Assembly: GCA_002393065.1 (NCBI GenBank)
Contig: DGGW01000066.1
Span: forward strand, 435-64,434
Origin: Alphaproteobacteria bacterium UBA3864
Lineage (GTDB): Bacteria > Pseudomonadota > Alphaproteobacteria > CAAGCB01 > CAG-977
DNA: 64,000 nucleotides
Direction of reading: 5' to 3'
Part shown: positions 1 through 55,856 of the stretch, one piece after another
How positions within the stretch are numbered: the first letter of the stretch is position 1
Layout: every line of letters begins with the position of its first letter
The notes under the pieces: generated by a model
The model's database searches: none
What the model was told of the DNA's origin: nothing
Seen by the model: only the letters and a program-made list of their open reading frames with translations
Translations under genes and position numbers: made by a program

Positions 1-1
1 T

Positions 2-373
2 TCTGATGAGGAAATATTTTCGTTATCAAAATCAACCGGCGAATTCGGTTTTTCGATTTCGGTGCGGAAGAAATCGGATATTTCGGAAAGACAAGTCAGA
101 CAAATATTATCTTTATGTCGGTTTTTGACCGGATGCCTGTTCGTGTCAAAAATGCCGATGAAAACGGATATTTTGATTCGGGCGAATCAACCAAAAGAAA
201 ATATCGCGGAATATTGCGCTTATTTAAGTAAAAAACTGGCGGAACTGTTCGGCGTCGATCCTGCGTTCATCTGTGAAAGCGATTATCTGCCTTTCTTGGA
301 AGGATTCGGCACTCTGATCGGCGAAACGGACAAAGAAGTCTTTCGCAATCTTACTTTTAAGCGACCTGTTTAA
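2..373 (+). CDS. Hypothetical protein. The open frame runs to the window start, so this is possibly the C-terminal part of a longer gene, and its start is unresolved (alternatives are GTG at 62 or the internal MPMK).
   Basis: The open frame reaches the window edge. No recognisable motif. Low confidence. Confidence 0.3.
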   Translation, partial: SDEEIFSLSKSTGEFGFSISVRKKSDISERQVRQILSLCRFLTGCLFVSKMPMKTDILIRANQPKENIAEYCAYLSKKLAELFGVDPAFICESDYLPFLEGFGTLIGETDKEVFRNLTFKRPV

Positions 374-481
374 GAATGCGTCATCTTTTGACGCACACCT
401 GCTGTATATTAAACACGAATCGTGCGGATTTGGCTTCGCTTGTTGCGCACGTTAAACACCAACTAAAAGGAGGATTTTAAA

Positions 482-1477
482 ATGTGTGTTGATTTTAAGG
501 AATATCATCGCGAATACTACACTTACCTTTTCGACCATATCGATGAATTCATCGCGTTGAAGGACGCGATCGACGCGACCCCTGAAATTTATTCGCATGA
601 CGGCGGCGGAACAACGAGTATTTTAAAAGGAAAATTCGAACTTCGTTTCGGGGGGTTGATCACGCTTTACGCGAACGGTCAATGGTGTGATCGGAAAAAG
701 AACGTCTTTCTGTATAAGATGTTGCAATGCCCGATGGGAAGCAAGGACGTTAAAGTGTACGGCTGGAACAACGAGGAAAAAGAATTTGACATATATTCCC
801 GCGTTTTTCCCGACACCGACACGCTGTTCGAACAAGCGCGGCTTGTCGCTCAATACAAACCGCAGACGGGAAAGAAAATAATTCCCCTTGAAACGCGAAA
901 CAGGTTGGCGGAGTTGTTTCAACCTCTGAAAGAATACACGCGCCATGCGGTTAACGACTTTAAATGTGTGGGCTTTGCCCGTCCGATTAACGGTCAAATC
1001 ACCGAAAAGAACATTCAAACGGGTGTTAAAACGCTGTTGGAAAATTGTGCGAAAGGACAATTGGAAAGGGTGAAATACGTCCTGAACAACTTCCCGCAGA
1101 TTTTCGGCAGGGCGGAAAGCAAAGACCTGCTTTTATCCGCCGCGAACGATTTGAGTATTTTGCGCTTTCTTTGCGATTGCGGCAAAACGGACGTTTCCGA
1201 CGCACCCGTTATCCGGAACGCGTGCAAGAGCAAAAAGGACGTTAAAGAACGTCTCGATTTATTGTTTGAACTGGGGGCGGACATCAATGCGAAAAACGGT
1301 GACGGTGAACCGCCGATCGTCGTTGCGGCGGAGGCGTTCAACATCAAAGCGATCCGCTGGCTTTTAAAGCACGGGGCGGACAAGACGGCGACGAACGCGA
1401 ATGACGAAACGGCGCGGGACATCGTTCTGAAAAACAAAGACGTTTTTAATTGGCGGGGAATTTTGAAACTGCTTTAG
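482..1477 (+). CDS. Ankyrin-repeat protein: an N-terminal domain of about 190 aa with unknown function plus C-terminal ANK repeats.
   Basis: A strong SD (AAAGGAGG) lies 8 nt upstream of the ATG. The C-terminus carries ANK consensus (LLFELGADINAKNGDGEPPIVVAA..LLKHGADKTATNANDETARD). Confidence 0.7.
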   Translation: MCVDFKEYHREYYTYLFDHIDEFIALKDAIDATPEIYSHDGGGTTSILKGKFELRFGGLITLYANGQWCDRKKNVFLYKMLQCPMGSKDVKVYGWNNEEKEFDIYSRVFPDTDTLFEQARLVAQYKPQTGKKIIPLETRNRLAELFQPLKEYTRHAVNDFKCVGFARPINGQITEKNIQTGVKTLLENCAKGQLERVKYVLNNFPQIFGRAESKDLLLSAANDLSILRFLCDCGKTDVSDAPVIRNACKSKKDVKERLDLLFELGADINAKNGDGEPPIVVAAEAFNIKAIRWLLKHGADKTATNANDETARDIVLKNKDVFNWRGILKLL

Positions 1478-1546
1478 CAAACGTCAGCTCCTGACGCATC
1501 ACTGTTTTAGAATATCCTTATCAACAATCGAAAAAGGAGAAAGAAA

Positions 1547-2398
1547 ATGATTGATATGAACACCGTTACCGACGAACAGGCGGATTATATGAACACGCCG
1601 ATGGAAGCCGTTGAGGAAATCGGAACGCTTTTAAACGAATTGGCGGCGTTTTTCCCGAATGAATTGGAAGACTATCTGGAAACGGATTTCTGCGAACGGG
1701 TGGCACGTCGTATGGTGTGGGACATTCCGGCAGGCTTTGCGGCTCTGCCCGAAAAGTTCCACGCGGTTGCGTTCCATCACGCCGTTCTGACCGATGATTC
1801 CGATATCGTCGAAGCCTTCCTTAAAGCGGCGAAGAAAGCGAAAATGAACATCGGCACCGACTTTTGCGATCCCGAATACGGCACGCCGCCGCTGATGATG
1901 GCGTGCTTTAACAAAGCCAAAAACGCTTTTGTTTCTTTGGTCGAAAAGGGCGGGGCGTCCCTGTCCGTCAAAGACGCTAAAGGACGCGGCTTGGCGTACG
2001 CGTGCGTGTTTTCGCATAATCTGGCTTTTATGAAGTGGGCGAAAAAGCACGGCGTCGTCTTTGATTTAAGCGATCCCGTCGATGCCGTAATACCTCTGGC
2101 GGGGGCGGAAGGCTCGGTCGCCGTTTTGCGCTGGCTGATCGAAGATCTGCACGGCGACGTGAACGCGGTCGATGCGGACGGCCGCACGGCGATGTATTAC
2201 GCGTGTATGTTCGGGGCGAACGACAACATCCTGTACCTGATCGACAAAGGCGCGTATCCGACCGAATTATCCGCGGCCGCTTTCGTTCCGATCGTTGAGA
2301 GGATCAAGGCACTGCGCGAAAAGGAACCGTCCGGCGTCGTCGATCTGGAAATCAAAAGCGAGATCAAAAAGCTGACGGACTTCGCGAAAAAGATCTGA
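1547..2398 (+). CDS. Ankyrin-like repeat protein; member of a tandem paralog pair.
   Basis: SD AAAGGAGAAAG. Contains an FHHAVL module, GTPPLMMA...LVEKGG and DADGRTAMYYAC motifs. It is clearly paralogous to the next gene. Confidence 0.65.
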   Translation: MIDMNTVTDEQADYMNTPMEAVEEIGTLLNELAAFFPNELEDYLETDFCERVARRMVWDIPAGFAALPEKFHAVAFHHAVLTDDSDIVEAFLKAAKKAKMNIGTDFCDPEYGTPPLMMACFNKAKNAFVSLVEKGGASLSVKDAKGRGLAYACVFSHNLAFMKWAKKHGVVFDLSDPVDAVIPLAGAEGSVAVLRWLIEDLHGDVNAVDADGRTAMYYACMFGANDNILYLIDKGAYPTELSAAAFVPIVERIKALREKEPSGVVDLEIKSEIKKLTDFAKKI

Positions 2399-2409
2399 CG
2401 GCTGAAAGG

Positions 2410-3255
2410 ATGACCATGTTTGACATGACGGAAAGCTTCCTGCCCGAAGGGGTGAAAAGAGAGCGGGCGCGGGTGGATTCCGAGCTGGCGGATCTCTTTT
2501 CCGACGACACGGTGAAGGCGTATAAAAACAGCCTTTTCTTTGCGGAACTCTGCGTGCGCGACGTGCGGGCACTCGTAAGCGGTTTTTTCGCTTTGCCGCA
2601 GGAACTGCGCGCGATCGCTTTCCACCATGCCGTTCTGATCAATCGCGCCGATATCTGTAACGCCGTTTTGTGCGTCGTCGCGACGCTTAAAGCGGACGTG
2701 AACACGGACTTTTCAACGGATGTGTTCGGGATCCCCCCGCTGATGACGGCCTGCGCCCGTCATTGCAGGCGTTCTTTTCTGGCTTTGGTCGAAAAGGGCG
2801 GGGCGGATCTGTCCGTGTGCGACGAACAGGGATACACGTTGGCGCGCGCCTGCGTTGAATCGGACGACCTGTCGTTTATGCAGTTGGCTCAAAAGCGCGG
2901 CGTCGTTTTCGACGCGGCCGATCCGGTCGATGCGCTGGTGCCTCTGGCGGCTAAAAACGACGCGTGGGGTGCCGTGCATTGGCTGATCGAAGACCTGAAC
3001 GGCGACGTGAACATGACCGACGAAGAAGGGTGGACGGCTTTGGATTACGCCTGTCGGCACGAAAAGAGGGCGATTTTCCTCTACCTGCTCGACAAAGGCG
3101 GAAAAATGACCGACAAAAGGGAGATTTTGTTCGGGCTGATCATCGAACAGATCAGGGAACTGCAGAAACGATTGCCGTCGGCGGAGGCGGACGATAAAAT
3201 CGGCAGACACATCGGCACGATGCGTTTTCTGATGACCGTCAGCGGCGGCGATTGA
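2410..3255 (+). CDS. Ankyrin-like repeat protein, paralog of 1547-2398. The true start is probably the ATG at 2416.
   Basis: Collinear similarity to the upstream gene (FHHAVL, GIPPLMTA..LVEKGGADLSV, WLIEDLNGDVN, DEEGWTALDYAC). The SD AAGGA fits the ATG at 2416 better than the one at 2410. Confidence 0.65.
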   Translation: MTMFDMTESFLPEGVKRERARVDSELADLFSDDTVKAYKNSLFFAELCVRDVRALVSGFFALPQELRAIAFHHAVLINRADICNAVLCVVATLKADVNTDFSTDVFGIPPLMTACARHCRRSFLALVEKGGADLSVCDEQGYTLARACVESDDLSFMQLAQKRGVVFDAADPVDALVPLAAKNDAWGAVHWLIEDLNGDVNMTDEEGWTALDYACRHEKRAIFLYLLDKGGKMTDKREILFGLIIEQIRELQKRLPSAEADDKIGRHIGTMRFLMTVSGGD

Positions 3256-3266
3256 ATTAGGGGGTA

Positions 3267-4265
3267 ATGATGCAAAACAAGGAAGATAAAGCGGAGCAGG
3301 GGACTTACGTCCGCTTCGCCAGAGTGTTGGATCTGGCCGTCAGAATGTTCGGACGGGGGCTGACGAAGGACGAGATCTGCCAAATCATGAAATGCTCGAA
3401 ACGGACGGCGGATCGCCTGATCGGCTGTTTTCAGGAAGTGTATTCCAACGGTTTGGAAGAATCTTCGAAAAACGGCAGGAAAACATGGAAAATCCTCGGC
3501 GGCGAAGATCTGCCCAAATCTTTGGAGATAGACGACGAAGATATTCTCCTGCTGAACAACCTTGCCGATTTGATGGCGCAACAGAACAGGGAAGCGGACG
3601 GCGACCGTCTGACAAAGATCCGCGCGAAACTCGTTCGGGCACTCGGAAACAAAGAGCGGGATCTGAACAATCTGGAATTTTCCGAAAGGAACGTCTTCCG
3701 GCCGGGAATCAAGGCTCAAATCGATCCCGAAATCGTCAGAACGATTCGTCGGGCGATCAGGGAAAAGAAAGTCCTCAATATCGAATATTACAATAAAAAG
3801 AGCGGGAAAATCAGCGAAGGCGCGCTCGAACCTTACGGCATTTTGTACAGCGATCGGGCGCAATATCTGCTGGCGCGCCACTGGGACGGTTATTTCGGCG
3901 ACGCGATCCATCAGTTCTTGCTGTCGAACATTCGTTCCGCCATCATGACGGACGAGGCGTTTGAAGGCGTCGATTTCGATATGAACGAATATACGAAAGA
4001 CTCTTTCGGCGTGTATCGCGAAGAACCGTACGACGTCGAATGGAAATTCAGCGCGAAGGCCGCGCCCGAAGCCAAAAAGTTCATCTTCCACCCCGGACAG
4101 GAAATCTTTGAGAACGAAGACGGCACGCTGACCGTGAAATTCCGAGCGGGCGGCACGCTGGAAATGGCATGGCATCTGGCGACGTGGGGAAAGCAGGTGG
4201 AAGTCGTACAACCCGCGGACTTTTGGCGGCGCGTCGCGAAAGCCGAACGGCAGCGGTGGCAGTAA
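3267..4265 (+). CDS. WYL-domain transcriptional regulator with wHTH-WYL-WCX architecture, BrxR/CapW/PafBC-like.
   Basis: SD AGGGGG. N-terminal HTH (LTKDEICQIMKCSKRTADRLI). WYL domain (VLNIEYYNKKSGKISEGALEPYGILYSDRAQYLLARHWDGY...FLLSNI). C-terminal WCX-like beta domain (GTLTVKFRAGGTLEMAWHLATWGKQVEVVQP). Confidence 0.85.
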   Translation: MMQNKEDKAEQGTYVRFARVLDLAVRMFGRGLTKDEICQIMKCSKRTADRLIGCFQEVYSNGLEESSKNGRKTWKILGGEDLPKSLEIDDEDILLLNNLADLMAQQNREADGDRLTKIRAKLVRALGNKERDLNNLEFSERNVFRPGIKAQIDPEIVRTIRRAIREKKVLNIEYYNKKSGKISEGALEPYGILYSDRAQYLLARHWDGYFGDAIHQFLLSNIRSAIMTDEAFEGVDFDMNEYTKDSFGVYREEPYDVEWKFSAKAAPEAKKFIFHPGQEIFENEDGTLTVKFRAGGTLEMAWHLATWGKQVEVVQPADFWRRVAKAERQRWQ

Positions 4266-4568
4266 ACTTTCGTTTGTATTTGACGGGTTAATCTGCCATA
4301 CTGTTTCCGTCAGCTTTTCTGACAGGGACTTCACAATCCCTTGCACAAACCGGTGCGGTTCAGAGATTCCGCATCGTCAACAAAACAAAATCTCCCGATC
4401 CATACGACCGGGAGATGGTGTTATGTTCAAGCATTTTGCCAAAAGCATCATGCCGTGTTTGTGCGGTTTGTGAACTCCCGGTCGCCAAGGGGAAAATCCT
4501 CCGGCGGCCGATTGTTTTAAGATTAACACTGTCGGGCGTCAAAACCTGACGATTTAAGGAATGAAAAA

Positions 4569-5573
4569 ATGAAAGCGGATTTATCGAAAGCTGTTCGGAT
4601 TATTAATAATCTGGATATCGATACTGATTCTGATCTTAACATCGTTGTTCAAGTCGCCAAATCTTTTGAAAAAAAAGAAGAAGAAAACAGAACAAAGAAA
4701 AAAGAATTTCTTCAAGCGATTGATGCGATTAACGGCTTGAAAGTCGATAACTCATACAGTTTTGATAAAGAATTCCGAGAAAATCACCCGATTTTAGGAG
4801 ATCTGGAAAACAATATATTTTTTGAAAGCCCTCTTTTTGAAGCCGTGCAAGTCGGAATGAAAGAACCGCAATATACGACGGCGTTAGGGTGGTTTTTACA
4901 AGAAGATCAGCAAGCCTGCCGGTTGTTTATAGAAACGCTCGCCGAAGTAGCAAATTTTCCGGAAGAATTTAAAAAGATATTACCGACTGAACACACTCCG
5001 ATTGAAAGCATATGGGAATATTCGGGTAAAAAAAATTCACAAAATGAAGAAGACGATGAAACGGATTCTGAAGGTAAAGAAGAAAAAAAAGCCGAGGAAG
5101 CCACATCCGAAACTTCTGATATCAGTGCCGGCAATGATGTGAAAAATCGCAAGGAAATAGACAATCTTTTGATTTGGGGAAGTGACAAGAAAAAACACGG
5201 TATCGTTATTGAAATCAAATTCGGTGCAGATTTGCACAATGAACTTCCATGTTATCAGCTAACAGCTTTAAAGAAGATGGGATATAATCCCTGCCAGAAA
5301 AATGAAAAACGTTGTGTTTTCCCAACAAACAGGGATTTGAAATGTGAAGATTGTCAGAAAAACAATTCTCTGATGTGCGTTGTTTTATCAACCAATCGCA
5401 TATCGGCTCAGAAAATCGAAGAGAACGACGGATGTCGAAAAATATGGCATAGGGTTTTGTGGTGTCATTTTATGCCGAAACTCAGTAAAAAAATGACACA
5501 ACATCAAGGGAATGGGGATTACAGGAGATTCCTGTCCTCGTTATGGCGTAAAGTGTTCGAAACTGAAGGGTAA
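4569..5573 (+). CDS. Hypothetical protein encoded in a strongly AT-rich segment. It carries a putative PD-(D/E)xK nuclease motif and a C-terminal Cys cluster.
   Basis: Codon usage and GC are clearly lower than in the flanks. D...EIK motif (LLIWGSDKKKHGIVIEIKFG). CxxC-type cluster (CQKNEKRC...CEDCQ). It lies directly downstream of the WYL regulator on the same strand. Confidence 0.55.
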   Translation: MKADLSKAVRIINNLDIDTDSDLNIVVQVAKSFEKKEEENRTKKKEFLQAIDAINGLKVDNSYSFDKEFRENHPILGDLENNIFFESPLFEAVQVGMKEPQYTTALGWFLQEDQQACRLFIETLAEVANFPEEFKKILPTEHTPIESIWEYSGKKNSQNEEDDETDSEGKEEKKAEEATSETSDISAGNDVKNRKEIDNLLIWGSDKKKHGIVIEIKFGADLHNELPCYQLTALKKMGYNPCQKNEKRCVFPTNRDLKCEDCQKNNSLMCVVLSTNRISAQKIEENDGCRKIWHRVLWCHFMPKLSKKMTQHQGNGDYRRFLSSLWRKVFETEG

Positions 5574-5577
5574 GAAA

Positions 5578-6237
5578 ATGGAAAACACGAAAAATTCTGA
5601 AATTTTCTCTAATGAAGAATTAGGAAAAGCGATCGAAACATACAATCTCTATATTGCAAACAGAGAAACTTTTAAAAAAGTTTACAATGAAGATTGTGAA
5701 TATGATGAAAACAAGTCTTTTATAGAAAATGCAAAAGACGAGATTAACTGTTATACGGCAAAAGGTAAAATAGAAACAACCGTGCCGGATGCAATCATGC
5801 TGGCCGCATATGTTTTTGAAAAAGCGGTTTGTCCTGTTTTGAAAGATAGGGAAATCGAAATTTCAAAGATACATTGGATACCAACGTATGGAGAAGATCC
5901 ATTTCCAGAATTTGATATAAAAATTGAGAATGAAAATTCACAAAAGCCTGTTTTGCTTGTCTTGGATTGCGAAGCTTTTCGCATTGGAGGAGCCTTTGTT
6001 GCAAAAGAAACAAAGAATAATATAACACTTGAAAAAATTTTTAAGGGTAAAAAAGAAGAATTTATAGATAAATCTGATGAAAAGGATTTATCAGAAAATA
6101 TTGTATTTTCAAAAAATAAATTTGAGTTTTCTTCAAATACTCCGCTTTCTTTGGATTGTTTGAACGAAAAAATCATTCCTCAAATCACAAAGGATTGTAA
6201 GAATTTAATAGAGGAGGCGTTCCTTCAGAATAACTAA
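5578..6237 (+). CDS. Hypothetical protein, AT-rich, operonic with 4569-5573 (4-bp gap).
   Basis: SD GAAGGG 6 nt upstream of the ATG at 5578. The ORF-track start at 5512 lies inside the upstream gene. No recognisable domain. Confidence 0.5.
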   Translation: MENTKNSEIFSNEELGKAIETYNLYIANRETFKKVYNEDCEYDENKSFIENAKDEINCYTAKGKIETTVPDAIMLAAYVFEKAVCPVLKDREIEISKIHWIPTYGEDPFPEFDIKIENENSQKPVLLVLDCEAFRIGGAFVAKETKNNITLEKIFKGKKEEFIDKSDEKDLSENIVFSKNKFEFSSNTPLSLDCLNEKIIPQITKDCKNLIEEAFLQNN

Positions 6238-6315
6238 ATCTTTTTCCGGCGGCGGGACGGACTTGCCGCCGGAATGATTTTTACGGTGTTCGAATCAAGC
6301 GTCAGGTTTTGTCGC
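6238..6315 (+). repeat. Copy A of a 78-bp near-identical direct repeat. It contains a GC hairpin (ccggcggc-N11-gccgccgg, 6246-6272) followed by a T-rich tract, so it looks like a terminator plus a conserved downstream leader.
   Basis: About 95% identical to 6833-6910. Both copies sit immediately 3' of a stop codon and 5' of a gene with a similar RBS context (TATGAAAGG...AAATG). Confidence 0.8.
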
Positions 6316-6367
6316 AGATACATGATATAAGGAAGATATCATTCAATCATTATGAAAGGGAACCGAA

Positions 6368-6826
6368 ATGAAAAATACGTTGTTGGACATTATTCAATCT
6401 TTTGAACATCCGATGGATTTGGATGATCAGGAAGTGCGCGAAGTGTTGGATTCGATTGATGATTTAACGCATCGTCAGATAAAAAACGCCGTTGAAGCGT
6501 TGTTGGATAAATACAAAAGTATTCAAAGAGGATATGAAATCAGAGGTGGAATACTTTCCAAAAAGATTGAAAAACTTATCCAAGAACTGGGAAAGAAAGG
6601 TGAAAAACTTTCTCCCGATTCAATAGAGGCAATGAAGGAATTTTTGGAAGAAGAAGGATACGTCGTCTACAAAAACGCTTCAGCGATTGCGATTGATATG
6701 GTCGAATTGCCTCTGAAATTGAGAAATGAGTTTCAGGCGGAAAAGAATCGTATGGGAACAATAACATACGAAAAGAAAAAAGGAATGGTTCTTGATGCCT
6801 TGAAAGAGTGGGCGGGCGAAGAATAA
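6368..6826 (+). CDS. Hypothetical small acidic protein (152 aa), AT-rich, bracketed by the 78-bp repeats.
   Basis: ATG with an upstream GAAAGGGAA. Clean ORF with no recognisable domain. Low GC like the two preceding genes. Confidence 0.5.
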   Translation: MKNTLLDIIQSFEHPMDLDDQEVREVLDSIDDLTHRQIKNAVEALLDKYKSIQRGYEIRGGILSKKIEKLIQELGKKGEKLSPDSIEAMKEFLEEEGYVVYKNASAIAIDMVELPLKLRNEFQAEKNRMGTITYEKKKGMVLDALKEWAGEE

Positions 6827-6832
6827 TTCCTA

Positions 6833-6910
6833 ATCTTTTTCCGGCGGCGGGGCGGACTTGCCGCTGGAATGATTTTTACGGTGTTCGAATCAAGCGTCAG
6901 GTTTTGTCGC
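6833..6910 (+). repeat. Copy B of the 78-bp direct repeat. The hairpin is at 6841-6867 with a G-U wobble-preserving substitution.
   Basis: Same sequence as copy A with three substitutions. The c>t change keeps RNA stem pairing as G·U. Confidence 0.8.
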
Positions 6911-6963
6911 GGGCGGGTGATACAAGGGAAAATATCGTTCGACCGTTATGAAAGGAATATGAA

Positions 6964-7667
6964 ATGACCAAAAAAGCGAAAGTGAAAAACTGGAGAGAGT
7001 TTTTTGAATCCGATCCGAAGGAACTTCCGTTCGCCGACATGAACGTTCGCGACGAAATAGGGCGACGATGCTGATCGGCGCAGCCCGTTCTTCCGCCGAT
7101 GTCGTGCGGCGCATCATCGATGCCGGCGCGGACGTCAACGCGGGGGCGGAGGGCAATTCGATAACCCCGCTGATTTGCGCCGCTGTCAACAGCGCTTATC
7201 CCGCCGTGATCAAAATGTTGGTCAAAGCCGGCGCGGATATCGAGGCAAAAATCAATCCTGAAGGCGAAGACCGCGGAACGCCTTTGCAGGCGGCGTTGGA
7301 AGCGAAAAATTTCAAAATCGCGCAGGCGTTGATCAAAGCGGGCGCAAACGTCAACGCAAAAGACGGTAAAGGAAGAACTCCTTTGATGATAACCGCTTGC
7401 CACGACGGAAACTGCGACATAATAGAGGCTTTGTTAAACGCGGGAGCGAAAATCAACGAAAAAGACAATGAGGGAAGAACGGCATTGATGCGTGCGGCCA
7501 AGTGGGAGACCCCCGATATCGTCAAACTGCTTCTTAAAGCCGGTGCGAACGTCAACGCTGTCGACAAAAAAGGCAAAACGGCTTTGGATTACGCGCGGGA
7601 AAAGGGACGCGACGAAATCGTTTTGCTGTTGGAAAAAGTTGTGGCAGGCGAAACAGCGGAGGAATGA
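6964..7667 (+). pseudogene. Ankyrin-repeat protein gene interrupted by a -1 frameshift near 7060-7068 (the pieces are 6964-7074 and 7068-7667).
   Basis: The frame-1 ORF ends ...DMNVRDEIGRRC*. The frame-3 ORF continues ATMLIGAARSS... and then 6 clean ANK repeats. Joining at g7062 restores the ANK consensus DEIGATMLIGAA. The break lies in a GGG run, so a sequencing error is possible. Confidence 0.5.
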
Positions 7668-7752
7668 CAAGGACCGATGACGGATTGATCGCCGCCGGAT
7701 AGAGATTTAAAAGGGATTTGGAAATCATTGATTTGTTAATCGTCAAAACAAT

Positions 7753-7786
7753 AAAAAAGCTTTCGACCGATCGGTCAAAAGCCTTG
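7753..7786 (-). terminator. Rho-independent terminator downstream of tRNA-Gly: a palindromic stem around gaccgatcggtc followed by a U-run on the minus strand.
   Basis: Minus-strand reading: gcttttgaccgatcggtcgaaagcTTTTTT. Confidence 0.6.
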
Positions 7787-7790
7787 AAAT

Positions 7791-7865
7791 TGGAGCGGGC
7801 GATGGGAATCGAACCCACGACATCAACCTTGGCAAGGTTGCGCTCTACCCCTGAGCTACACCCGC
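7791..7865 (-). tRNA. tRNA-Gly (anticodon GCC).
   Basis: The reverse complement reads gcgggtgtagctcaggggtagagcgcaaccttGCCaaggttgatgtcgtgggttcgattcccatcgcccgctcca. It is a cloverleaf with a GTTCGATTC T-loop and ends in CCA. Confidence 0.9.
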
Positions 7866-7922: not shown

Positions 7923-10900
7923 TTAAAAAATATTCGGTACCAGTTTTCGGATGACGCCGGGGGCGACGGCCGACAACGGATTGACGGATATTTCCGGCGT
8001 CGGCAGGACGCCTTCGATTTTATAAGAAACGCCGATCAGCCCGCCGCCTTTTTCGCCCGTCAGCATTTTCCCGACAAGGGGGACTTTGCCGACCAACCCG
8101 TTCACGCCGTAAAAAGGCATCATCGTTCCGGTCAGGTCCAAAAAGCTTTTTTGACCGTTATAACTTCCTTCCAGCGTGATGCCCAGCGACGACCCCGCCA
8201 CCAATCCGTCGTTTACGGTTAATATCCCGTTGTTATGGGCGAATTGCGCTTCCGCTTTTTCGAAGTGCAGTCCTTTCCCCGTCAGCGTGTCGATCAGCCC
8301 CGTGAACGACGTCAGACGCAACAGACGCGTTAAAAGCGGCTGTTCTGCCAATCTGAAATCTTCGATTTCGAGCAATCCGGAAGCGCCCTTTTCGGTGTTG
8401 TATTGCCCTTTGATTTTAATTTTTCCGCCTTTGACGGTTGACATGGATCCCAGCAGTTTCATCAGAGAACCGGCGTCGTCGGACGTGAAAGCGAAGGCGG
8501 ATTCGTTGTTTTTCGGATCGGGATAAAACTTGAAACGGAACGGCGTGCGTTTTTCGCCGATTTTTCCCGTCGCGTCGATTCGTTGCGGCGCGCCGCCCTT
8601 CAAAACGGCCGCGAAAGCATTGTCTTCGGCGGCGGAATCCGACAACCAGACTTTGTTGAAAACGGCGTTGATGACGTAAAGCGGTTCATCGGCGTTTTTA
8701 TTCGGTTCGTCCTTGTCGCTATTGATTTCTTTTCCGGTTTCGTCCCCGCTTTTTTCTTGCTTTTTTATCAGTTGCGATAGATCCAGCGACAATCCGTTTG
8801 CGTCAATCCGGTTTTTTCCTTTGACATTGAAACGGATGCGGGCTTTCAGATCGGTTTTACCGGCGACCAGAACGGGAACGTTGATGCGGGCGATATTTCC
8901 GTCGGGAGCGAAATCCATGGACGTTTTGACGATGTTTCCGGCTTTGTCCGAAACGGTAATGTCCGGTATGGCTTTAAGGGCGTTGTTTTCGAACGTCATT
9001 TTCAGGCGCGCCGTTCCGCCGGTTTCCGCTTTTTTCACCCAGTTGATCATGGGGAAATCGAGCGCGGCGGGAGTAAGATCGGCGTCGGCCGACGCTTCAC
9101 CCGTCCCGTTTCTGAACAGGCGTAAAAGAAAGCGCACCGGAACCGTTCCGACAACGTACGGCGTAGCGGCGTAATCGACGCCTATATCCTTTCGCGCGGC
9201 GTCGGTGACTTGTCCCGTTACGGCCAGATCCGTCGAAACGTCTTTCTGACCGGTGAAGTCCTGAAACAGTTCGGCGTGAACGGCGCCTTCCCGCGCCAGA
9301 GCGTCGGCCGTCAGTGTCAGTCCTTTTTCGTTGACGGAAAGATCGGCGTCGACATCCTGCAGGGCGATGAAGTCGAAAGGATAGCCTTTAAACGCGGCCT
9401 TGTCGGTTTTCGCGTCGACCGAGAACGCGACATCTTCCGGTTTTAAATCGTCTTTGAGCGGGAAGGTCAGCTTTAACAATCCCGTCGCCGGTCCGGACAG
9501 GTTTTCGGGCCCGATTTGCGTCGTTTGGCGTGTCAGACCGAGCCCCGGCGATAAAACGACGGACATCGCGTCGGACAAATCGGCGACTTCCAGCGGAACG
9601 GACAGGTCGAAATAGGGGACGGGACGATCCAGCCCCGTAAAAGCCGCCCGCGCGTGACGGGATACGAGACCGGCGGATTTCGCGGAATAAATACTGATGA
9701 CGATATCCTTTAAAGAATAGTCGATTTTACCGTCGGCGTCCGTTACGACGGGCATGCCGTCCATGTAGGTCAGGGCGACGTTCCGAAGACCGTGCGTTAT
9801 GTCAAGCTTTGTTACGCCGAACCCCGTCCCGTCGTCGCCGAACGCCATATACAGCGACGCGTTCGGAACGACGCCTTCTTTAACGTTGCCGACGACCCAG
9901 TCGTAAACGTCTGGAATACTGCTTCTCGGCCAATAATCGCGCGCCTGATCAATGGAAAAGTTTTCGGCCGTTGCCGTCAAAACGGCGTTCAGCAACGCCG
10001 GATTCTTTTTGGTCAGAGCGGCGTTGACGTTATCGACTTTGAAATTCCCGCGAAGTTTCGCGCCGCGTCTTAAATCAACGGCGATGGCGGGCAGGGAGAG
10101 CGTTTTGTCGCGTTTGTTCCATTCTCCGTCGATTTTGAAAGAGGCGACGTCATAATATCCGCCGATATCCCGCGGCAGAACGATGTCGCCTTCCGTCCCC
10201 GTCAGAGTGAAAGAGGCCTGACGGAGGATGTCGTGCCATTGAAACTTGTCCGACGGATACCGGAAGGGGCGCGTGTCGATTTGCAGGGACAGCGCCAAAG
10301 TCAGCGGGACGGACACGCCGTTCAGCAAAGGATATTTTTCCGCGCCGCGCAGCTTTTTCAAATCGACGTCGCTGATCAGCAGTTTTATCGGAACGAACGC
10401 CGTGTGAGACCGCCATCGCGCCGACAAGGCGGCATGAACGGGGCGACCGGCCGTTTCGGCGGTGAAATCGGCGGTGACTTTGTAACGTCCGAAACGGCGG
10501 ACATAGGAAATCGAAAAAGACGGGAAATTGAATTTCGAATTGTTGGCCCGATCGGTGATTCCGATGCGGGCATTCAGAATTTGAAAACGTGTCGGCTCGG
10601 TGTGGCGTCTGAAGATGTCGGCGATCGTCGGCAGCAAAGGCTCTTCTCCCGTTTCGGCGGATGTTTTTTCTTCGTCGCTTTCCTGCTCGGAACCGGCGTT
10701 TAAAACGATGTCGACCTTCGGATCGAAAACGGCCAGACGGCGCGGCGCCACTTTGCCGCGCAATAACGATAAAAGGCGGAAAACGACCGTCGCTCGCGGG
10801 ACGTCCGCCGCGAAAGCATCTTTTTTGGAAGCGTGCAGTTCGGAAATTTCGATATGGACGGGGCTGGACCATTTGTCCCAAACCAGTCGGGCGTCGCCGA

Positions 10901-11078
10901 TCGATAAAGTCAGGCCGTCAACGCTTTGCATCGCTTTTTGCGACAGGACGGGTAGAAAACGGTTCAGCGATACGGGCCCCATCCTTAACCGGAACAACAG
11001 CGCGCCGATACAGCACAGAAACGCAAACGACAGCGTCAGAAAAGCGATCGCAAAAAATTTGAAAAACTTGCGCTTCAT
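7923..11078 (-). CDS. AsmA-family outer-membrane biogenesis protein (AsmA/YhdP-like, 1051 aa).
   Basis: N-terminal signal/TM (MKRKFFKFFAIAFLTLSFAFLCC). Long beta-rich body. C-terminal AsmA_2/DUF3971-like segment (LLTRLLRLTSFTGLIDTLTGKGLHFEKAEAQFAHNNGILTVNDGLVAGSSLGITLEGSYN). Confidence 0.8.
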   Translation of the reverse strand: MKRKFFKFFAIAFLTLSFAFLCCIGALLFRLRMGPVSLNRFLPVLSQKAMQSVDGLTLSIGDARLVWDKWSSPVHIEISELHASKKDAFAADVPRATVVFRLLSLLRGKVAPRRLAVFDPKVDIVLNAGSEQESDEEKTSAETGEEPLLPTIADIFRRHTEPTRFQILNARIGITDRANNSKFNFPSFSISYVRRFGRYKVTADFTAETAGRPVHAALSARWRSHTAFVPIKLLISDVDLKKLRGAEKYPLLNGVSVPLTLALSLQIDTRPFRYPSDKFQWHDILRQASFTLTGTEGDIVLPRDIGGYYDVASFKIDGEWNKRDKTLSLPAIAVDLRRGAKLRGNFKVDNVNAALTKKNPALLNAVLTATAENFSIDQARDYWPRSSIPDVYDWVVGNVKEGVVPNASLYMAFGDDGTGFGVTKLDITHGLRNVALTYMDGMPVVTDADGKIDYSLKDIVISIYSAKSAGLVSRHARAAFTGLDRPVPYFDLSVPLEVADLSDAMSVVLSPGLGLTRQTTQIGPENLSGPATGLLKLTFPLKDDLKPEDVAFSVDAKTDKAAFKGYPFDFIALQDVDADLSVNEKGLTLTADALAREGAVHAELFQDFTGQKDVSTDLAVTGQVTDAARKDIGVDYAATPYVVGTVPVRFLLRLFRNGTGEASADADLTPAALDFPMINWVKKAETGGTARLKMTFENNALKAIPDITVSDKAGNIVKTSMDFAPDGNIARINVPVLVAGKTDLKARIRFNVKGKNRIDANGLSLDLSQLIKKQEKSGDETGKEINSDKDEPNKNADEPLYVINAVFNKVWLSDSAAEDNAFAAVLKGGAPQRIDATGKIGEKRTPFRFKFYPDPKNNESAFAFTSDDAGSLMKLLGSMSTVKGGKIKIKGQYNTEKGASGLLEIEDFRLAEQPLLTRLLRLTSFTGLIDTLTGKGLHFEKAEAQFAHNNGILTVNDGLVAGSSLGITLEGSYNGQKSFLDLTGTMMPFYGVNGLVGKVPLVGKMLTGEKGGGLIGVSYKIEGVLPTPEISVNPLSAVAPGVIRKLVPNIF

Positions 11079-47400: not shown

Positions 47401-50385
47401 ATGGAATGGAAGGATATTATAGGCAAAACGGTTTATCATAAAGTTTTTGGAGAAGGAAAAATAAAATCTTGTGATGGAAAACGCATAGAGGTTAGCTTTG
47501 GCGTTGGAGAAAAAAAGTTTTTTTTCCCAGAGGCTTTTAAGTATGGAGATTTATATGAACGGAAAGATCAAGAACTTCTGAAACAACAACGTCAAGAAGA
47601 GGAAAGGCTCCGTCAGGAAGAGGAGCGAAAGGCTTGGAAACATTTTGAGCAACAACGACGGGAAAAGGAAAGACGCAGTCAAGAAGCGCTGAGACGTCGG
47701 CGGGAAGAGGAGCAAAAGGCCCGGGAACTCCGTGAGCAACAATGGCGTGAAGAGGAAAGGCGTCGTCAGGAAGAACTGAGACGTCGGCAGGAAGAGGAGC
47801 GAAAGGCTCGGGAACTTCGCGAGCAACAACAATGGGAAGAAAAAAGGCGTCGGCAGGAAGAGGAAAGACATTGGCGGAAAGTAGTAGAAAAAGAGCTGAA
47901 TAGTCCTTTGACCGACGAACAATGGGCCGCGATTTACAATGATGACGACGCGTCTTTGATCGTCGCGGGGGCGGGGTGCGGCAAAACGACGACGGCTTTG
48001 GGAAAAATCGTTTATCTGGTCAGGTCCGGCAAAGCGAAACTGGAAGAAATTTTACCGATTTATTTCAATAAGAAAAACGCTGACGAAATGAACGGTAAAA
48101 TCATAGATATTTTCGGGAATACGCAAAAAATAGCTTACGACTATCACAGTGTGGGCTTGAAGTTTTTAAAAGAATCCTGCCCTGTAGAAAAAACTGAAGA
48201 TATGATACGCCGGATATTTAAAGATTTTCTCGATGATAAAAAAAGCGAAGATTTAATCTGCCGGATTTTTGATTTCATCGTGCGATATATGTATACCGAT
48301 AATGAACGCACGATGGAAATGTTTCCGAAAGGCTTTGACGATTTGTCCGTTGAAAAAAAAGTTGAAGCGTTGGAAGATGATTGCGAGACGTTAAACGGTG
48401 AACGTGTCAAAAGTCCGGCGGAGGCCGTGATCGCGAATTTCCTGTTTACGCATCACATCCCCTATGTTTACGAGAAATGGTTTAAATCTTGTTATCCTGA
48501 TGCATATCCGATGAAACCGGATTTTTATGTGCCTTTGGGGGACGGAACTGATCCGAAACACGCCGTTTGGATCGAACATTGGGGCATTGAATTCGACAGT
48601 TACGGAAATGAACGGGCCAGATGGCTGGATGAAAAGGGGGAAAGGGATTATATCGAAGACAAGAAACAGAAGCTGGCGGAATATAGAAAAAACAATGTCA
48701 AACTGATCGAGTTGTTTTTATCCGATTTTAAAGACGACACGCTGATCGATAAATTGAAAACGAAATTGGAAGAATTCGGCGTGGATACAAGCCGGGGAAT
48801 GACCCGCGATGAAAGAATAAGGTATATTAAAAAACTGATTAAAACAAAAAAATTAGAATCATTTCAAAATTTTGTTCAACGGTGTATAGAGCTTTTAAAA
48901 AGCAATAAACACACATCGCAGGATATTCCTAAAATTCATAAAAACGCTCTTCGCGATTTGGAAAAACGCGAAATGGAAAGGGTGAAAGAATTTTACAGAA
49001 TCGTCTATTGCGTTATGAAGGAATACGAAAGACGGCAAGGGGAAGAGAACGGTATTGATTTTGCGGATATGCTGATAAAAGCGCCGGCGAAAATCGCCGA
49101 CGCGGAGCTTCGGTACAAATACATCATCATTGACGAATATCAGGATATTGACGAACTTGATTATGAACTGATTTCCGCAATTCAGAAAAAAACGAACGCG
49201 AAAATCTGTTGCGTCGGCGATGATTGGCAGGCGATTTATCGTTTCAAAGGGGCAGATCTTGGTTTCTTTTCAAATTTCGGGAGGTATTTTCCGAATTTCA
49301 AAACATACCGTGTTCAGCAAACATTCCGAAACGGCGCGCCGTTGATCGATATTGCCGGAAAGTTTATTCAAAAAAACGACCGGCAGTTAAGAAAGACAAT
49401 TCGTTCCGATAAAAGTACGTTCCTGAAGGCCGTCCGCTATCATGAATTTGAAAGCCGGGGAAGAGAAAAGGACGTAGATCGATTGAACTGTCTGTTCGAT
49501 ATTTTAAACCAGCCGGACAAGGATAATTTTCTTATCATCGTCAGAAACAATAGCGATTTTAACAAATATTTTGATTGTTTGGGCGAAGACGTTTCCAGTC
49601 TTTCGGACGTTGAAAAGGCTTTGCGGCGAAAGTTTTCCAAAAATATCGAAGTTCGGACGGCACATAGGTCAAAGGGGCTGGAATACGATTATGTCGTCGT
49701 TTTCAATACAGCCTGCAGAATGACGGGTTTCCCGTCTCTGATGGATGATGATCCCGCGATTTCGTTTTTGTTGCCGGAAAAAGAGGAGTATTCTTTGGCG
49801 GAAGAACGGCGGTTGTTTTATGTCGCTCTGACGCGGGCTAAAAAAGGATGTTATCTGCTTGTTCCGAAATTTATGCCGTCGTGGTTCTTTTTTGAGATTC
49901 AAGACGCTATCGGCAAAGACAATATCTTTGATTCCGACAACGCCTTGCTGGCTACTTGCCCATGGTGCGGTAGGGAAATGGAACGCAAACAAAGAAAGGA
50001 TGAAACAAAAGCAATATTTTACAGCTGTTCATCCTATCCCGATTGCAAGTATTCTGCGCCGAAAGGCTTTATCGTTAAAAACTGCGATGATGTCGAAAAG
50101 CTGATAAAAGAAAAAGCCGAAAAACAAAACAGACCGGCATCCGTGTATGTCTATGATGAACGGAAAAAAGAGCTCGACTTCATGGATTGCACGCTTTTTG
50201 AGAATGCGAAGGATAAACGCCCCGCGGACCGAAGCGTTGATGTTTATATCGTGATCAATGATGTAAAGAATTGTTCCGAAGTTAGAAACTTTTTGATAAA
50301 ATTAAACCGCGAACCCGTTTTGTTGAATTTATCCGAAAACGATATACCGGAACAATTCATAAAAAACGTTTTCGGAACGCTGTGA
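47401..50385 (+). CDS. UvrD/PcrA-like superfamily-1 helicase (994 aa) with N-terminal charged tandem repeats, an inserted Vsr/DUF559-like PD-(D/E)xK endonuclease domain and a C-terminal topoisomerase-type C4 zinc ribbon.
   Basis: Walker A LIVAGAGCGKTTT. Motif II IIIDEYQDI. Motif III CCVGDDWQAIYRFKGAD. Motif VI YVALTRAKKGCYLL. Internal nuclease region SPAEAVIANFLFTHHIPYVYEKWF...PDFYVP...VWIEHWGIEFD...KQKLAEY...LIEL. Zinc ribbon CPWCG...YSCSSYPDCKY. Low GC. Confidence 0.8.
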   Translation: MEWKDIIGKTVYHKVFGEGKIKSCDGKRIEVSFGVGEKKFFFPEAFKYGDLYERKDQELLKQQRQEEERLRQEEERKAWKHFEQQRREKERRSQEALRRRREEEQKARELREQQWREEERRRQEELRRRQEEERKARELREQQQWEEKRRRQEEERHWRKVVEKELNSPLTDEQWAAIYNDDDASLIVAGAGCGKTTTALGKIVYLVRSGKAKLEEILPIYFNKKNADEMNGKIIDIFGNTQKIAYDYHSVGLKFLKESCPVEKTEDMIRRIFKDFLDDKKSEDLICRIFDFIVRYMYTDNERTMEMFPKGFDDLSVEKKVEALEDDCETLNGERVKSPAEAVIANFLFTHHIPYVYEKWFKSCYPDAYPMKPDFYVPLGDGTDPKHAVWIEHWGIEFDSYGNERARWLDEKGERDYIEDKKQKLAEYRKNNVKLIELFLSDFKDDTLIDKLKTKLEEFGVDTSRGMTRDERIRYIKKLIKTKKLESFQNFVQRCIELLKSNKHTSQDIPKIHKNALRDLEKREMERVKEFYRIVYCVMKEYERRQGEENGIDFADMLIKAPAKIADAELRYKYIIIDEYQDIDELDYELISAIQKKTNAKICCVGDDWQAIYRFKGADLGFFSNFGRYFPNFKTYRVQQTFRNGAPLIDIAGKFIQKNDRQLRKTIRSDKSTFLKAVRYHEFESRGREKDVDRLNCLFDILNQPDKDNFLIIVRNNSDFNKYFDCLGEDVSSLSDVEKALRRKFSKNIEVRTAHRSKGLEYDYVVVFNTACRMTGFPSLMDDDPAISFLLPEKEEYSLAEERRLFYVALTRAKKGCYLLVPKFMPSWFFFEIQDAIGKDNIFDSDNALLATCPWCGREMERKQRKDETKAIFYSCSSYPDCKYSAPKGFIVKNCDDVEKLIKEKAEKQNRPASVYVYDERKKELDFMDCTLFENAKDKRPADRSVDVYIVINDVKNCSEVRNFLIKLNREPVLLNLSENDIPEQFIKNVFGTL
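47580..47880 (+). repeat. In-frame tandem repeat with an 87-bp period (29 aa, ELRRRQEEERKARELREQQW-type), 2 clean plus about 1.5 degenerate copies, inside the helicase gene.
   Basis: 47689-47775 matches 47776-47862 at about 88% nucleotide identity. Confidence 0.7.
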
Positions 50386-52316: not shown

Positions 52317-52450
52317 GATTTCGATCCTAAAAAATCCGATGGCGGAACTATACTGTAAAAGGCTTGTTCCGTCAATGTTTTTTGCTCGTTGACTTGAACC
52401 GAAAGGGATTTTACCATAAAGCACCTTGTCATGTGTCGGAGAACCCGGAA

Positions 52451-55855: not shown

Positions 55856-55856
55856 A

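Follow-up and report, generated by a model that had tools for sequence, protein, structure and literature searches.

A tRNA-flanked ankyrin gene array in an uncultured alphaproteobacterium, probably a DriD-type regulon remodelled by homologous recombination

The window analysed here is a stretch of 64,000 nucleotides (64 kb) from Alphaproteobacteria bacterium UBA3864 (contig DGGW01000066.1), the first 7,865 positions of which hold a block of accessory genes that ends at a gene for tRNA-Gly(GCC). A preliminary description, made from the sequence alone, had taken this block for a probable genomic island integrated at the 3' end of that tRNA gene. The present analysis leads to another reading, to which a probability of roughly 60% is assigned, namely that the block belongs to a lineage-specific accessory array that is organized as a regulon of the DriD type and has been remodelled by homologous recombination, and that it is not a self-integrating island. 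This reading is built on direct observation of the anatomy of the array, its conservation, the distribution of a palindromic box and the footprints of recombination.

Results

Gene content and borders of the array

All genes to the left of the tRNA-Gly gene lie on the plus strand. The window opens within an SprT-like (zincin) gene, the 3' part of which occupies 2..373 (Pfam SprT-like, E=1e-6); an identical metagenome contig (L001) places the start 574 nt upstream of the window and yields a full product of 315 aa. It is followed by Ank331 (482..1477), which has an uncharacterized N-terminal domain and C-terminal ankyrin repeats (Pfam Ank_2/4/5) and is represented by orthologues in the related contigs L011, L013 and L008. 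Next come Ank283 (1547..2398, Pfam ankyrin), its paralogue Ank281 (2410..3255, Pfam ankyrin, ~44% aa identity) and the gene for a DriD-like transcription regulator of the winged helix-turn-helix (wHTH)-WYL-WCX type (3267..4265, Pfam WYL and WCX). The AT-rich gene orf334 (4569..5573) has no Pfam family match, and its partner, the orphan gene orf220 (5575..6237, GC 31%), has no family match either. The true start of orf220 is probably the ATG at 5575; its orthologues, of 211-223 aa, begin in L008 and L013 just past the stop codon of the gene that corresponds to orf334. Another orphan without a family match, orf152 (6368..6826), has a homologue in a 170-aa gene of L016 and is flanked by a 135-nt direct repeat (6237-6371 and 6832-6967). 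The last gene, designated Ank' (6964..7667), is a frameshifted, internally deleted and chimeric ankyrin pseudogene, with a Pfam-recognizable ankyrin open reading frame (ORF) at 7068-7667. The spacer that separates it from the tRNA (7668..7790) is kept in a conspecific relative and contains a relic of the start of one further ankyrin gene as well as the intrinsic terminator of tRNA-Gly, which a terminator scan located on the minus strand at 7785-7756.

ARAGORN and Rfam agree on the tRNA-Gly(GCC) gene at 7791-7865 on the minus strand, with its 3' end at 7791, pointing left; it is the sole tRNA that ARAGORN found within the window. To its right, a YhdP/AsmA-like core gene (7923..11078, minus strand) is the first of a conserved asmA-glnE-deo segment. 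The order deo-glnE-asmA is preserved in relatives with 97% and 82% DNA identity to the window over these genes, and also in a relative with an AsmA only 29% identical; a metagenome scan returned only two loci, at 29% identity, which keep deo-glnE-asmA without tRNA-Gly. Among 185,579 species genomes no AsmA relatives were found (two scans, with one protein and one alignment). Four Logan contigs that carry asmA (L005, L006, L007 and L027) all stop at window position 7829 inside tRNA-Gly and are thus uninformative on the junction; this common stop probably reflects a break in the assemblies, at a sequence that other genomes or loci share, rather than a biological junction. The inventory given in the preliminary description was sound in these respects: Pfam and the repeat analysis agree with it on the tandem ankyrin paralogues, the WYL regulator, the AT-rich cassette and the repeat-bracketed orphan, ARAGORN and Rfam on the minus-strand tRNA-Gly, the gene order of the relatives on the core genes to its right, and Pfam searches of the ORFs on the lack of an integrase in 1-7865.

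The DNA upstream of the window was recovered by an exact-protein look-up, which returned four independent metagenome contigs with 100% identity to the window over the shared part. The contig L001 reaches 9.5 kb further to the left and has the gene order dnaA-dnaN-recF-gyrB-tRNA-Thr-DUF2779-hyp201-SprT, the last gene running into window position 1. The tRNA-Thr(CGT) gene lies on the plus strand directly after gyrB, ~3 kb upstream of position 1 and ~6 kb from dnaA; it is followed by a DUF2779/Cas4-like gene on the minus strand, a gene for a 201-aa protein (hyp201) and the full SprT-like gene. The accessory stretch therefore amounts to 10.7 kb between two convergent tRNA genes, tRNA-Thr(CGT) on the left and tRNA-Gly(GCC) on the right.

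The composition of this stretch is a mosaic and not uniformly foreign: about half of the genes are strongly atypical, and the other half, including the regulator, are host-like. The GC content at third codon positions (GC3) is 0.25-0.39 in the orphan genes (orf334, orf220, orf152), 0.43-0.44 in the SprT-like gene and 0.50 in hyp201, whereas Ank283 (0.68), Ank281, the WYL gene and Ank' lie at 0.62-0.72 and hence within the range of the core genes. The patchy GC content noted earlier was accordingly confirmed, with GC3 values of 0.25-0.72 across the block genes versus 0.63-0.81 for core genes. Elsewhere in the window, a second AT-rich patch (47401-50385; GC 42%, GC3 0.45) encodes a 994-aa UvrD-like helicase with a C-terminal topoisomerase-type zinc ribbon, and this may be another imported gene. 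Two large ankyrin-repeat genes at 52364-57503 (1163 and 548 aa) have a host-like composition, indicating that ankyrin genes are common in this genome and are no sign of an island in themselves.

No sign of site-specific integration at tRNA-Gly

A tRNA border is present on both sides of the array, the 3' ends of tRNA-Gly and tRNA-Thr both facing the block. It had been suggested that an integrase may lie upstream of position 1; the contigs identical to the window show the dnaA-gyrB region there and no integrase, and Pfam searches of all ORFs from the tRNA-Thr terminator to tRNA-Gly detected neither a tyrosine or serine integrase nor any other recombinase. The sole recombinase met, in L011, has 196 aa, consists of the catalytic domain only and gives weak XerC/D-like scores. 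The preliminary description had also proposed two checks, a search for a distal att repeat of the tRNA 3' segment and a comparison of synteny in relatives, and both went against it. Neither the window nor L001 contains a second copy of the 3' 25-mer of tRNA-Gly, with up to 3 mismatches allowed, and 16-24-mers of the 3' end of tRNA-Gly or tRNA-Thr have no copy at up to 4 mismatches in 24 nt in any locus fetched. A conspecific genome carries the block at the same position, with homology crossing the 3' end of tRNA-Gly; thus, no breakpoint between conspecifics exists at this end, the homology of L025 and of a second assembly, L026, running through to window position 7614. A tblastn search with the SprT-like protein and orf334 against 72,556 plasmid records gave no match.

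The actual strain-level hotspot is located just downstream of the tRNA-Thr terminator beside gyrB, and not at tRNA-Gly. GyrB relatives were looked up, and in a contig with a dnaA-gyrB region 99.3% identical to that of the window strain (L021) the tRNA-Thr is followed by McrC-McrB-HU-ArdC, the homology stopping 38 nt past tRNA-Thr, just beyond its terminator. In a sister species (L020, 84% nt identity) BioG, a glycosyltransferase and TraG/VirD4 follow tRNA-Thr, with the breakpoint at the same place, and a more distant relative (L024) retains gyrB-tRNA-Thr, followed by core genes. A tRNA-Thr repeat at the hotspot was not found in the loci fetched.

Some features of the DNA adjoining the hotspot are recorded here in their own right. 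From the tRNA-Thr terminator to DUF2779, L001 has a 144-nt AT-rich spacer (within L001 6519-6700, ~3.0-2.8 kb upstream of position 1) that is unique to the window strain and contains a tandem TTTTCTATCAC repeat and an inverted GATAGAAAA; homology with two other lineages stops where this spacer begins. In sample ERZ28436069, tRNA-Thr is succeeded by McrBC, HU and ArdC (within L021 13048-18548), and another contig from the same sample (L011 1-3900) carries the 196-aa catalytic-domain-only tyrosine recombinase and a DUF3768 gene just left of DUF2779. These two segments may belong to one large mobile element at tRNA-Thr, the contigs being unjoined. For the L011/L021 strain, the idea that an element had simply inserted between tRNA-Thr and DUF2779 was considered and rejected: the 144-nt spacer is absent from L011, there is no repeat and the contigs are unlinked.

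Recurrence of the array in relatives and a 12-kb deletion in the window strain

Orthologues of the WYL regulator form a graded series, with identities of 97, 82, 81, 79 and 72%, then 56 and 49%, down to 37%. The core of the block, that is, one or more SprT-like genes, ankyrin genes and the WYL gene, recurs in at least five lineages (WYL identities of 97, 82, 79 and 56%), and its neighbours vary. Between the DUF2779 stop and window position 4528, the contigs L011 and L012 share 93.7% identity with the window strain; they have a PDDEXK_4 nuclease gene in place of orf334 and orf220 and three extra genes (201 aa, a PEGA-domain protein of 675 aa, and 148 aa) before the last ankyrin gene, and their flanks differ, with the 196-aa recombinase and DUF3768 on the left and HipA and OmpH on the right. 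Window ORFs of 201 and 675 aa at 25-29 kb were rejected as counterparts of the first two extra genes, since they show no similarity to these and are LpoB-like, unrelated proteins. As in the window, the WYL gene is followed by the AT-rich gene pair in L008-L010 (~77% identical) and in L013-L015 (86.5%), which shows that the pair is old in the lineage and not a recent insertion. In L016 (WYL 56%) part of the array is inverted and the block ends 1.3 kb from a tRNA-Ser(CGA) gene. This edge (L016 11091-12399) consists of an Omp85/ShlB gene fragment and the tRNA-Ser(CGA), whose 3' end points toward the block, and is a second case of a tRNA at the edge.

The conspecific comparison was made possible by a cluster look-up, in which an AsmA at least 90% identical to that of the window was found on the same 53.3-kb contig as L013; this locus is L025. 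Its order is block, Ank1024, AAA_21, 74 aa, Ank381, Ank996, 51 aa, Ank512, Ank566, tRNA-Gly, asmA, glnE, deo. The identity to the window is 96.8% from 21079 down to 7614, a span that takes in asmA, tRNA-Gly, its terminator, the 123-nt spacer and the last 54 nt of the window ankyrin ORF. As the homology is unbroken to 7614, the array sits at the same chromosomal site in the conspecific, and the 3' end of tRNA-Gly is no breakpoint; the comparison further shows that ~12 kb are missing from the window. The tandem ankyrin genes beside tRNA-Gly in L025 (13420-19862; 996, 512 and 566 aa and a 51-aa fragment) have near-identical C-terminal caps (...EIVxLLEKAVAGKKAEE) and no DriD-type boxes, and of this tandem array the window retains no more than the last 54 nt.

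Ank' records how the missing segment was lost. Its promoter and first 35 codons match Ank1024 (85-91% aa identity) up to a 1-nt frameshift near 7066-7070, its internal part matches Ank1024 codons around 220-340 (88% nt identity), and its last 54 nt are the 3' end of Ank566, the tRNA-proximal 566-aa ankyrin gene (~97%). The remnant codes for 36+199 aa versus 1024 aa in the orthologue, so the decaying ankyrin gene of the preliminary description proved to be real. Being a chimera of Ank1024 and Ank566, it points to a ~12-kb deletion by recombination between ankyrin repeats.

Identity between lineages is equally uneven. Identity to L011 varies between 82% and 100% from one 250-nt segment to another, and in a single contig pair it is 96.8% in the core but 86.5% in the block. 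In the DUF2779 gene of the window strain, a tract of 440 nt has 96-97% identity to L008, which represents another species and is otherwise ~77% identical, and 82-84% identity to L011; at the other end of the gene the pattern is reversed, with L011 close and L008 distant. Taken together, the swings in identity, the DUF2779 tracts and the contrast between core and block indicate that alleles of the array have been exchanged between lineages by homologous recombination.

Palindromic boxes and promoter modules

Three non-coding elements of the array, designated E1, E2 and E3, all bear the palindrome CGTCAGGTTTTGACG or a close variant of it. The pattern CGTCANNNNNTGWCG has five sites in the window, one in each of the five intergenic gaps of more than 60 nt in the first 7 kb, and none in the window outside these gaps; with both strands counted there are 8 matches versus a shuffle mean of 0.55, and 0 of 100 shuffles reached 8. 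Box 1 (CGTCATCTTTTGACG, 379..393, plus strand) is followed 11 nt downstream by TATATT and is the predicted promoter of Ank331. Box 2 (1482..1496, plus strand), with TAGAAT 11 nt downstream, is the predicted promoter of an Ank283-Ank281-WYL operon, in which the genes are separated by 12-nt gaps, so that the regulator is predicted to feed back on itself. Box 3 (4537..4551) reads CGTCAGGTTTTGACG on the minus strand and has TAATCT 11 nt downstream. The remaining two boxes lie in the copies of the 135-nt module E2 that precede orf152 and the last ankyrin gene: copy 1 (6237..6371, plus strand) consists of a terminator (6244-6274), a box (6300-6314), the -10 hexamer TATAAG and a ribosome-binding site (RBS), and copy 2 (6832..6967, plus strand) likewise of a terminator (6839-6869), a box (6895-6909), the -10 hexamer TACAAG and an RBS. 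Three more boxes are present upstream in L001, before DUF2779, hyp201 and SprT.

The arrangement is regular. In five genomes almost all gaps of the block contain a box, which points in the direction of the gene behind it, and control loci have no box of the DriD type. All 13 of the aligned promoters (13/13) have a hexamer with TA as its first letters exactly 11 nt downstream of the box, and the boxes themselves lie at the -35 position, where no -35 element is recognizable. An integron-like reading, in which each cassette would carry its own palindrome, was rejected: the palindromes match DriD sites and sit at promoters, and the window region contains no integron integrase.

The non-coding modules of the array are better conserved than its genes. 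E1 (385..481, plus strand) is a promoter and 5' untranslated region module of ~100 nt with a nearly invariant 60-nt core, which contains the hairpin CGTGCG...CGCACG and was found upstream of at least five different genes in five genomes; its copies are at window 385-481 and L001 8162-8263, with 11 more in L008, L009, L011, L013 and L016. The non-coding DNA of E1 is 88-95% conserved versus ~75% for the genes behind it. A sub-threshold Rfam match of E1 to SAM_alpha (SAM-II; 25 bits versus a gathering score of 36) is probably due to chance. E3 (4316..4554), a non-coding element of 240 nt between the WYL gene and the gene that follows it, shows almost no variation among genomes in which WYL identity ranges from 56% to 97%. 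Both of its strands form stable folds (z=-3.8 and -4.3), with the alternative pairings ATCTCCCG/CGGGAGAT and GACCGGGAG/CTCCCGGTC; the copies of E1 and E3 are too invariant for covariation testing.

The WYL regulator and its relation to DriD

The regulator has an N-terminal helix-turn-helix domain followed by WYL (Pfam E=6e-11) and WCX (E=7e-11) domains. Its closest solved structure by phmmer is DriD of Caulobacter crescentus (8TP8; E=6e-27, residues 15-317); the solved relatives found were the activators DriD and PafC, and no PDB chain deposited under the names CapW or BrxR was matched at E<=0.01. In DriD, the residues Arg37, Glu40 and Arg41 read bases, the two arginines reading guanines (PMC10853764). 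The recognition helix is KRTADR here versus RRTAER in DriD, Arg37 and Arg41 being kept and Glu40 replaced by Asp. The DriD site has been described as C1G2T3C4-N7-G12(A13)C14G15 with an AT-rich gap, for example ATACGTCCGTTTCTGGCGCA at didA, and the sites of alphaproteobacterial DriD homologues as CGxC-N7-GxCG (PMC10853764). DriD sites have a fixed spacing to the -10 element and lie over the place of the missing -35 element (PMC13004042).

The palindromes of the array match DriD sites in sequence, spacing and position, and the WYL protein is therefore predicted to bind them and to activate eight promoters upon binding of single-stranded DNA (ssDNA). By analogy with DriD, we infer that it recognizes CGTC-N7-GACG boxes and that ssDNA would be the signal.

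A swappable slot and a candidate antisense RNA

The position after the WYL gene is a slot of exchangeable content, occupied by orf334 and orf220 in the window, L008 and L013 and by the PDDEXK_4 gene in L011; the swap has its breakpoint where the conserved leader ends, at 4528. The orf334 protein has only 14 relatives among 1.84 billion representatives, and in the resulting family of 15 members D198 and E215-x-K217 are conserved. It is a remote homologue of the PDDEXK_4 protein in the slot of L011 (hhalign 88.6%, E=2.7e-6). Its AlphaFold2 model has a predicted local distance difference test score of 74.8, and its top Foldseek hits are restriction endonucleases, with weak values (E>=0.007, template modelling score ~0.2). 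orf334 thus probably encodes a nuclease of the PD-(D/E)XK fold, an assignment with moderate support from sequence and modelling. PADLOC, PHROGs and NCBIfam gave no informative match for hyp201, orf334, orf220 or orf152.

The slot genes themselves have no sense-oriented box. Box 3, within E3, points away from them, and the strongest minus-strand terminator of the region (4416-4390, with a T-run) is ~135 nt downstream of it on that strand. The orientation of box 3, the terminator and the folding of E3 suggest a box-driven small RNA (sRNA) antisense to the leader of the slot genes. This candidate, of ~135 nt with approximate ends (4380..4513, minus strand), is delimited by box 3, the -10 hexamer and the terminator, and is conserved in relatives. 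E3 also gave a sub-threshold full-length match to sRNA-Xcc1 (RF02221) at 4406-4491 on the plus strand (32.5 bits versus a gathering score of 53), a family that has been described on islands, integron cassettes and prophages. The identification of E3 with sRNA-Xcc1 was rejected, because the score is below the gathering threshold and the match is on the plus strand, while the promoter and terminator signals favour an RNA from the minus strand.

Discussion

A tRNA gene beside genes of unusual composition is not sufficient for calling an integrase-type island. What stands of the preliminary description is that the block is accessory, compositionally mosaic, variable between strains and species and bounded by a tRNA gene; site-specific integration at the 3' end of tRNA-Gly has found no support. 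The junction at tRNA-Gly is conserved, and the variation arises from recombination between ankyrin repeats and between conserved promoter modules.

The most probable explanation is a lineage-specific array with its own DriD-type regulation. The array is composed of modules, each consisting of a terminator, a regulator box, a -10 hexamer, an RBS and an ORF, and its own DriD-like wHTH-WYL-WCX protein would bind the CGTC-N7-GACG boxes in place of a -35 element. Sensing of ssDNA, produced by DNA damage or delivered by invading DNA, would switch on eight promoters, the predicted targets being the Cas4-like DUF2779 nuclease, hyp201, the SprT-like protease, Ank331, orf152 and the terminal ankyrin gene, the Ank283-Ank281-WYL operon, which would create a positive feedback, and the ~135-nt sRNA, which would be antisense to the leader of the exchangeable cassette with the PD-(D/E)XK-like nuclease. 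Homologous recombination changes the array in three ways: cassettes are swapped or inserted where the conserved intergenic modules recombine, genes are deleted where ankyrin repeats do so, by which the array came to abut tRNA-Gly in the window strain, and mosaics arise through recombination with divergent alleles from related lineages. Binding of the boxes by the regulator, ssDNA as its signal, the sRNA and the biological role of the array are what we infer from this architecture.

A bolder version of this reading, which can be put forward only tentatively, is that of a self-contained regulon island, in which a DriD-type ssDNA sensor travels together with its eight cognate promoters, an antisense sRNA and a swappable nuclease slot. 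Such a unit would encode a damage- or infection-induced ankyrin programme and might be exchanged between lineages by homologous recombination without a recombinase of its own.

Several points weigh against the preferred explanation. The full interval from tRNA-Thr to tRNA-Gly was seen in the window strain only, and all relatives are metagenome contigs. Box binding, induction and the sRNA are predictions from sequence, the link between boxes and regulator is drawn across ~25-30% identity to DriD, a putative orthologue, and the nuclease assignment of orf334 is modestly supported. About half of the genes are strongly atypical in composition, as would be expected of imported DNA. Lastly, the blocks of L011/L012, L008 and L016 have other flanks and lie near genes of mobile elements, which in the other lineages comprise the 196-aa tyrosine recombinase, DUF3768, toxin-antitoxin pairs and phage-tail-like genes; past carriage by a mobile element is therefore possible.

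This last point leads to the alternative that survives best, although it is unlikely: the array could be the degraded remnant of an integrative and conjugative element (ICE) or a genomic island that once sat at tRNA-Thr or tRNA-Gly and later lost its integrase, att repeat and transfer genes by deletion. Such an origin would fit a block between two tRNA genes whose 3' ends both point toward it, the McrBC-HU-ArdC genes that directly follow the tRNA-Thr terminator in L021, the strain with a dnaA-gyrB region of 99.3% identity, the recombinase and DUF3768 genes that adjoin DUF2779 on the left in L011, a contig of that same sample, the tRNA-Ser(CGA) that faces the end of the L016 block at 1.3 kb, and the atypical GC content of several genes. 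Nevertheless, no att repeat of either tRNA turned up with as many as 4 mismatches allowed in 24 nt, the two conspecifics share the tRNA-Gly junction and have their breakpoint inside an ankyrin gene, and the L011 homology begins exactly at the DUF2779 stop, without the 144-nt spacer that a simple insertion would have kept. In addition, codon usage is host-like in half of the genes, that of the regulator among them, the extent of the block differs in every lineage without constant ends, and the two proteins tried, SprT-like and orf334, have no match in the 72,556 plasmid records.

Less probable still is an anti-phage defence island, in which a WYL repressor of the BrxR/CapW type would silence nuclease defence genes (DUF2779/Cas4-like and the PD-(D/E)XK cassette) as long as there is no infection, the variability of the slot being the outcome of an arms race. 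Like the effector reading considered below, it bears on what the cargo does. The regulator does adjoin nucleases, alternative and very rare PD-(D/E)XK-like genes occupy the slot behind it, an AAA_21 ATPase and toxin-antitoxin genes are nearby in relatives, and the block is mosaic with a fast turnover. However, PADLOC returned generic WYL, Cas4-like and ankyrin (PDC-M72A) matches only, without system components, and nothing for orf334, orf220 or orf152. The solved relatives of the regulator are the activators DriD and PafC, no CapW- or BrxR-named chain having been reached at E<=0.01, and boxes at the -35 position of promoters without a -35 element represent the architecture of an activator (PMC13004042). 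The predicted targets, moreover, are mostly ankyrin proteins and not nucleases.

A host-interaction locus, in which ankyrin effectors would be secreted (e.g. by a type IV system) by a host-associated alphaproteobacterium and the tRNA and WYL genes would be incidental, is very improbable as a rival: it would account for the many ankyrin genes in the block and at 52364-57503, the tandem ankyrin array beside tRNA-Gly in a relative, the TraG/VirD4 gene after tRNA-Thr in the sister species and faint T4SS_AnkD and weak AnkG-type matches, but the AnkG match has 19 bits versus a cut-off of 500, the box-promoter architecture and the nuclease and protease genes are left unexplained, and an effector function would be compatible with the recombining, DriD-controlled array preferred here rather than exclusive of it.

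Among known systems, the DriD regulon of Caulobacter crescentus, in which a wHTH-WYL-WCX activator controls a DNA-damage response independent of SOS, is the closest counterpart. The domain architecture of the regulator is the same, the CGTC-N7-GACG boxes of the array with their T-rich gap are comparable to the didA site ATACGTCCGTTTCTGGCGCA (PMC10853764), the fixed spacing from box to -10 element and the lack of a -35 element are shared (PMC13004042), and the nuclease targets are comparable to bapE of the DriD regulon. The array differs in packing eight boxes and the regulator gene into 10.7 kb, in its predicted targets, which are ankyrin proteins, the SprT-like protease, orphans and a candidate antisense sRNA instead of the dispersed recA, recJ, didA and dnaG of Caulobacter, in having the regulator gene last in an ankyrin operon without a box-bearing promoter of its own, and in being strain-variable and a recombination mosaic.

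With tRNA-linked islands, such as P4-type integrase islands, pathogenicity islands and ICEs, the array shares accessory, patchy and strain-variable genes next to a tRNA 3' end and a hotspot just after the terminator of the neighbouring tRNA-Thr. In contrast to these islands, it has no integrase, att direct repeat or breakpoint at the 3' end of tRNA-Gly, lies at the same site in a conspecific, and changes via homologous, repeat-mediated recombination. The WYL repressors CapW and BrxR belong to the same wHTH-WYL-WCX fold family and are likewise found beside nucleases and a variable slot, and ssDNA sensing is known for CapW (PMC11662680). Unlike in their case, no known defence system was detected in the array by PADLOC, and both the sequence and the promoter architecture point to a DriD-like activator.

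Tandem arrays of ankyrin genes also occur in variable regions of host-associated Alphaproteobacteria such as Wolbachia and other Rickettsiales. The likeness extends to tandem paralogues that rapidly expand and contract, repeat-mediated deletions and chimeric genes, whereas the genes of the present array carry predicted promoters of a WYL regulator, and the organism is uncultured and known from metagenomes only. If the proposed control is true, the recently solved activation mechanism of DriD extends to a compact and strain-variable array with eight promoters in 10.7 kb, and the genes under it would encode ankyrin proteins, an SprT-like protease, Cas4-like and PD-(D/E)XK-like nucleases and a conserved candidate sRNA. 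The array is thus a variation on known systems, a gene set under proposed WYL/DriD control in a plastic region flanked by tRNA genes.

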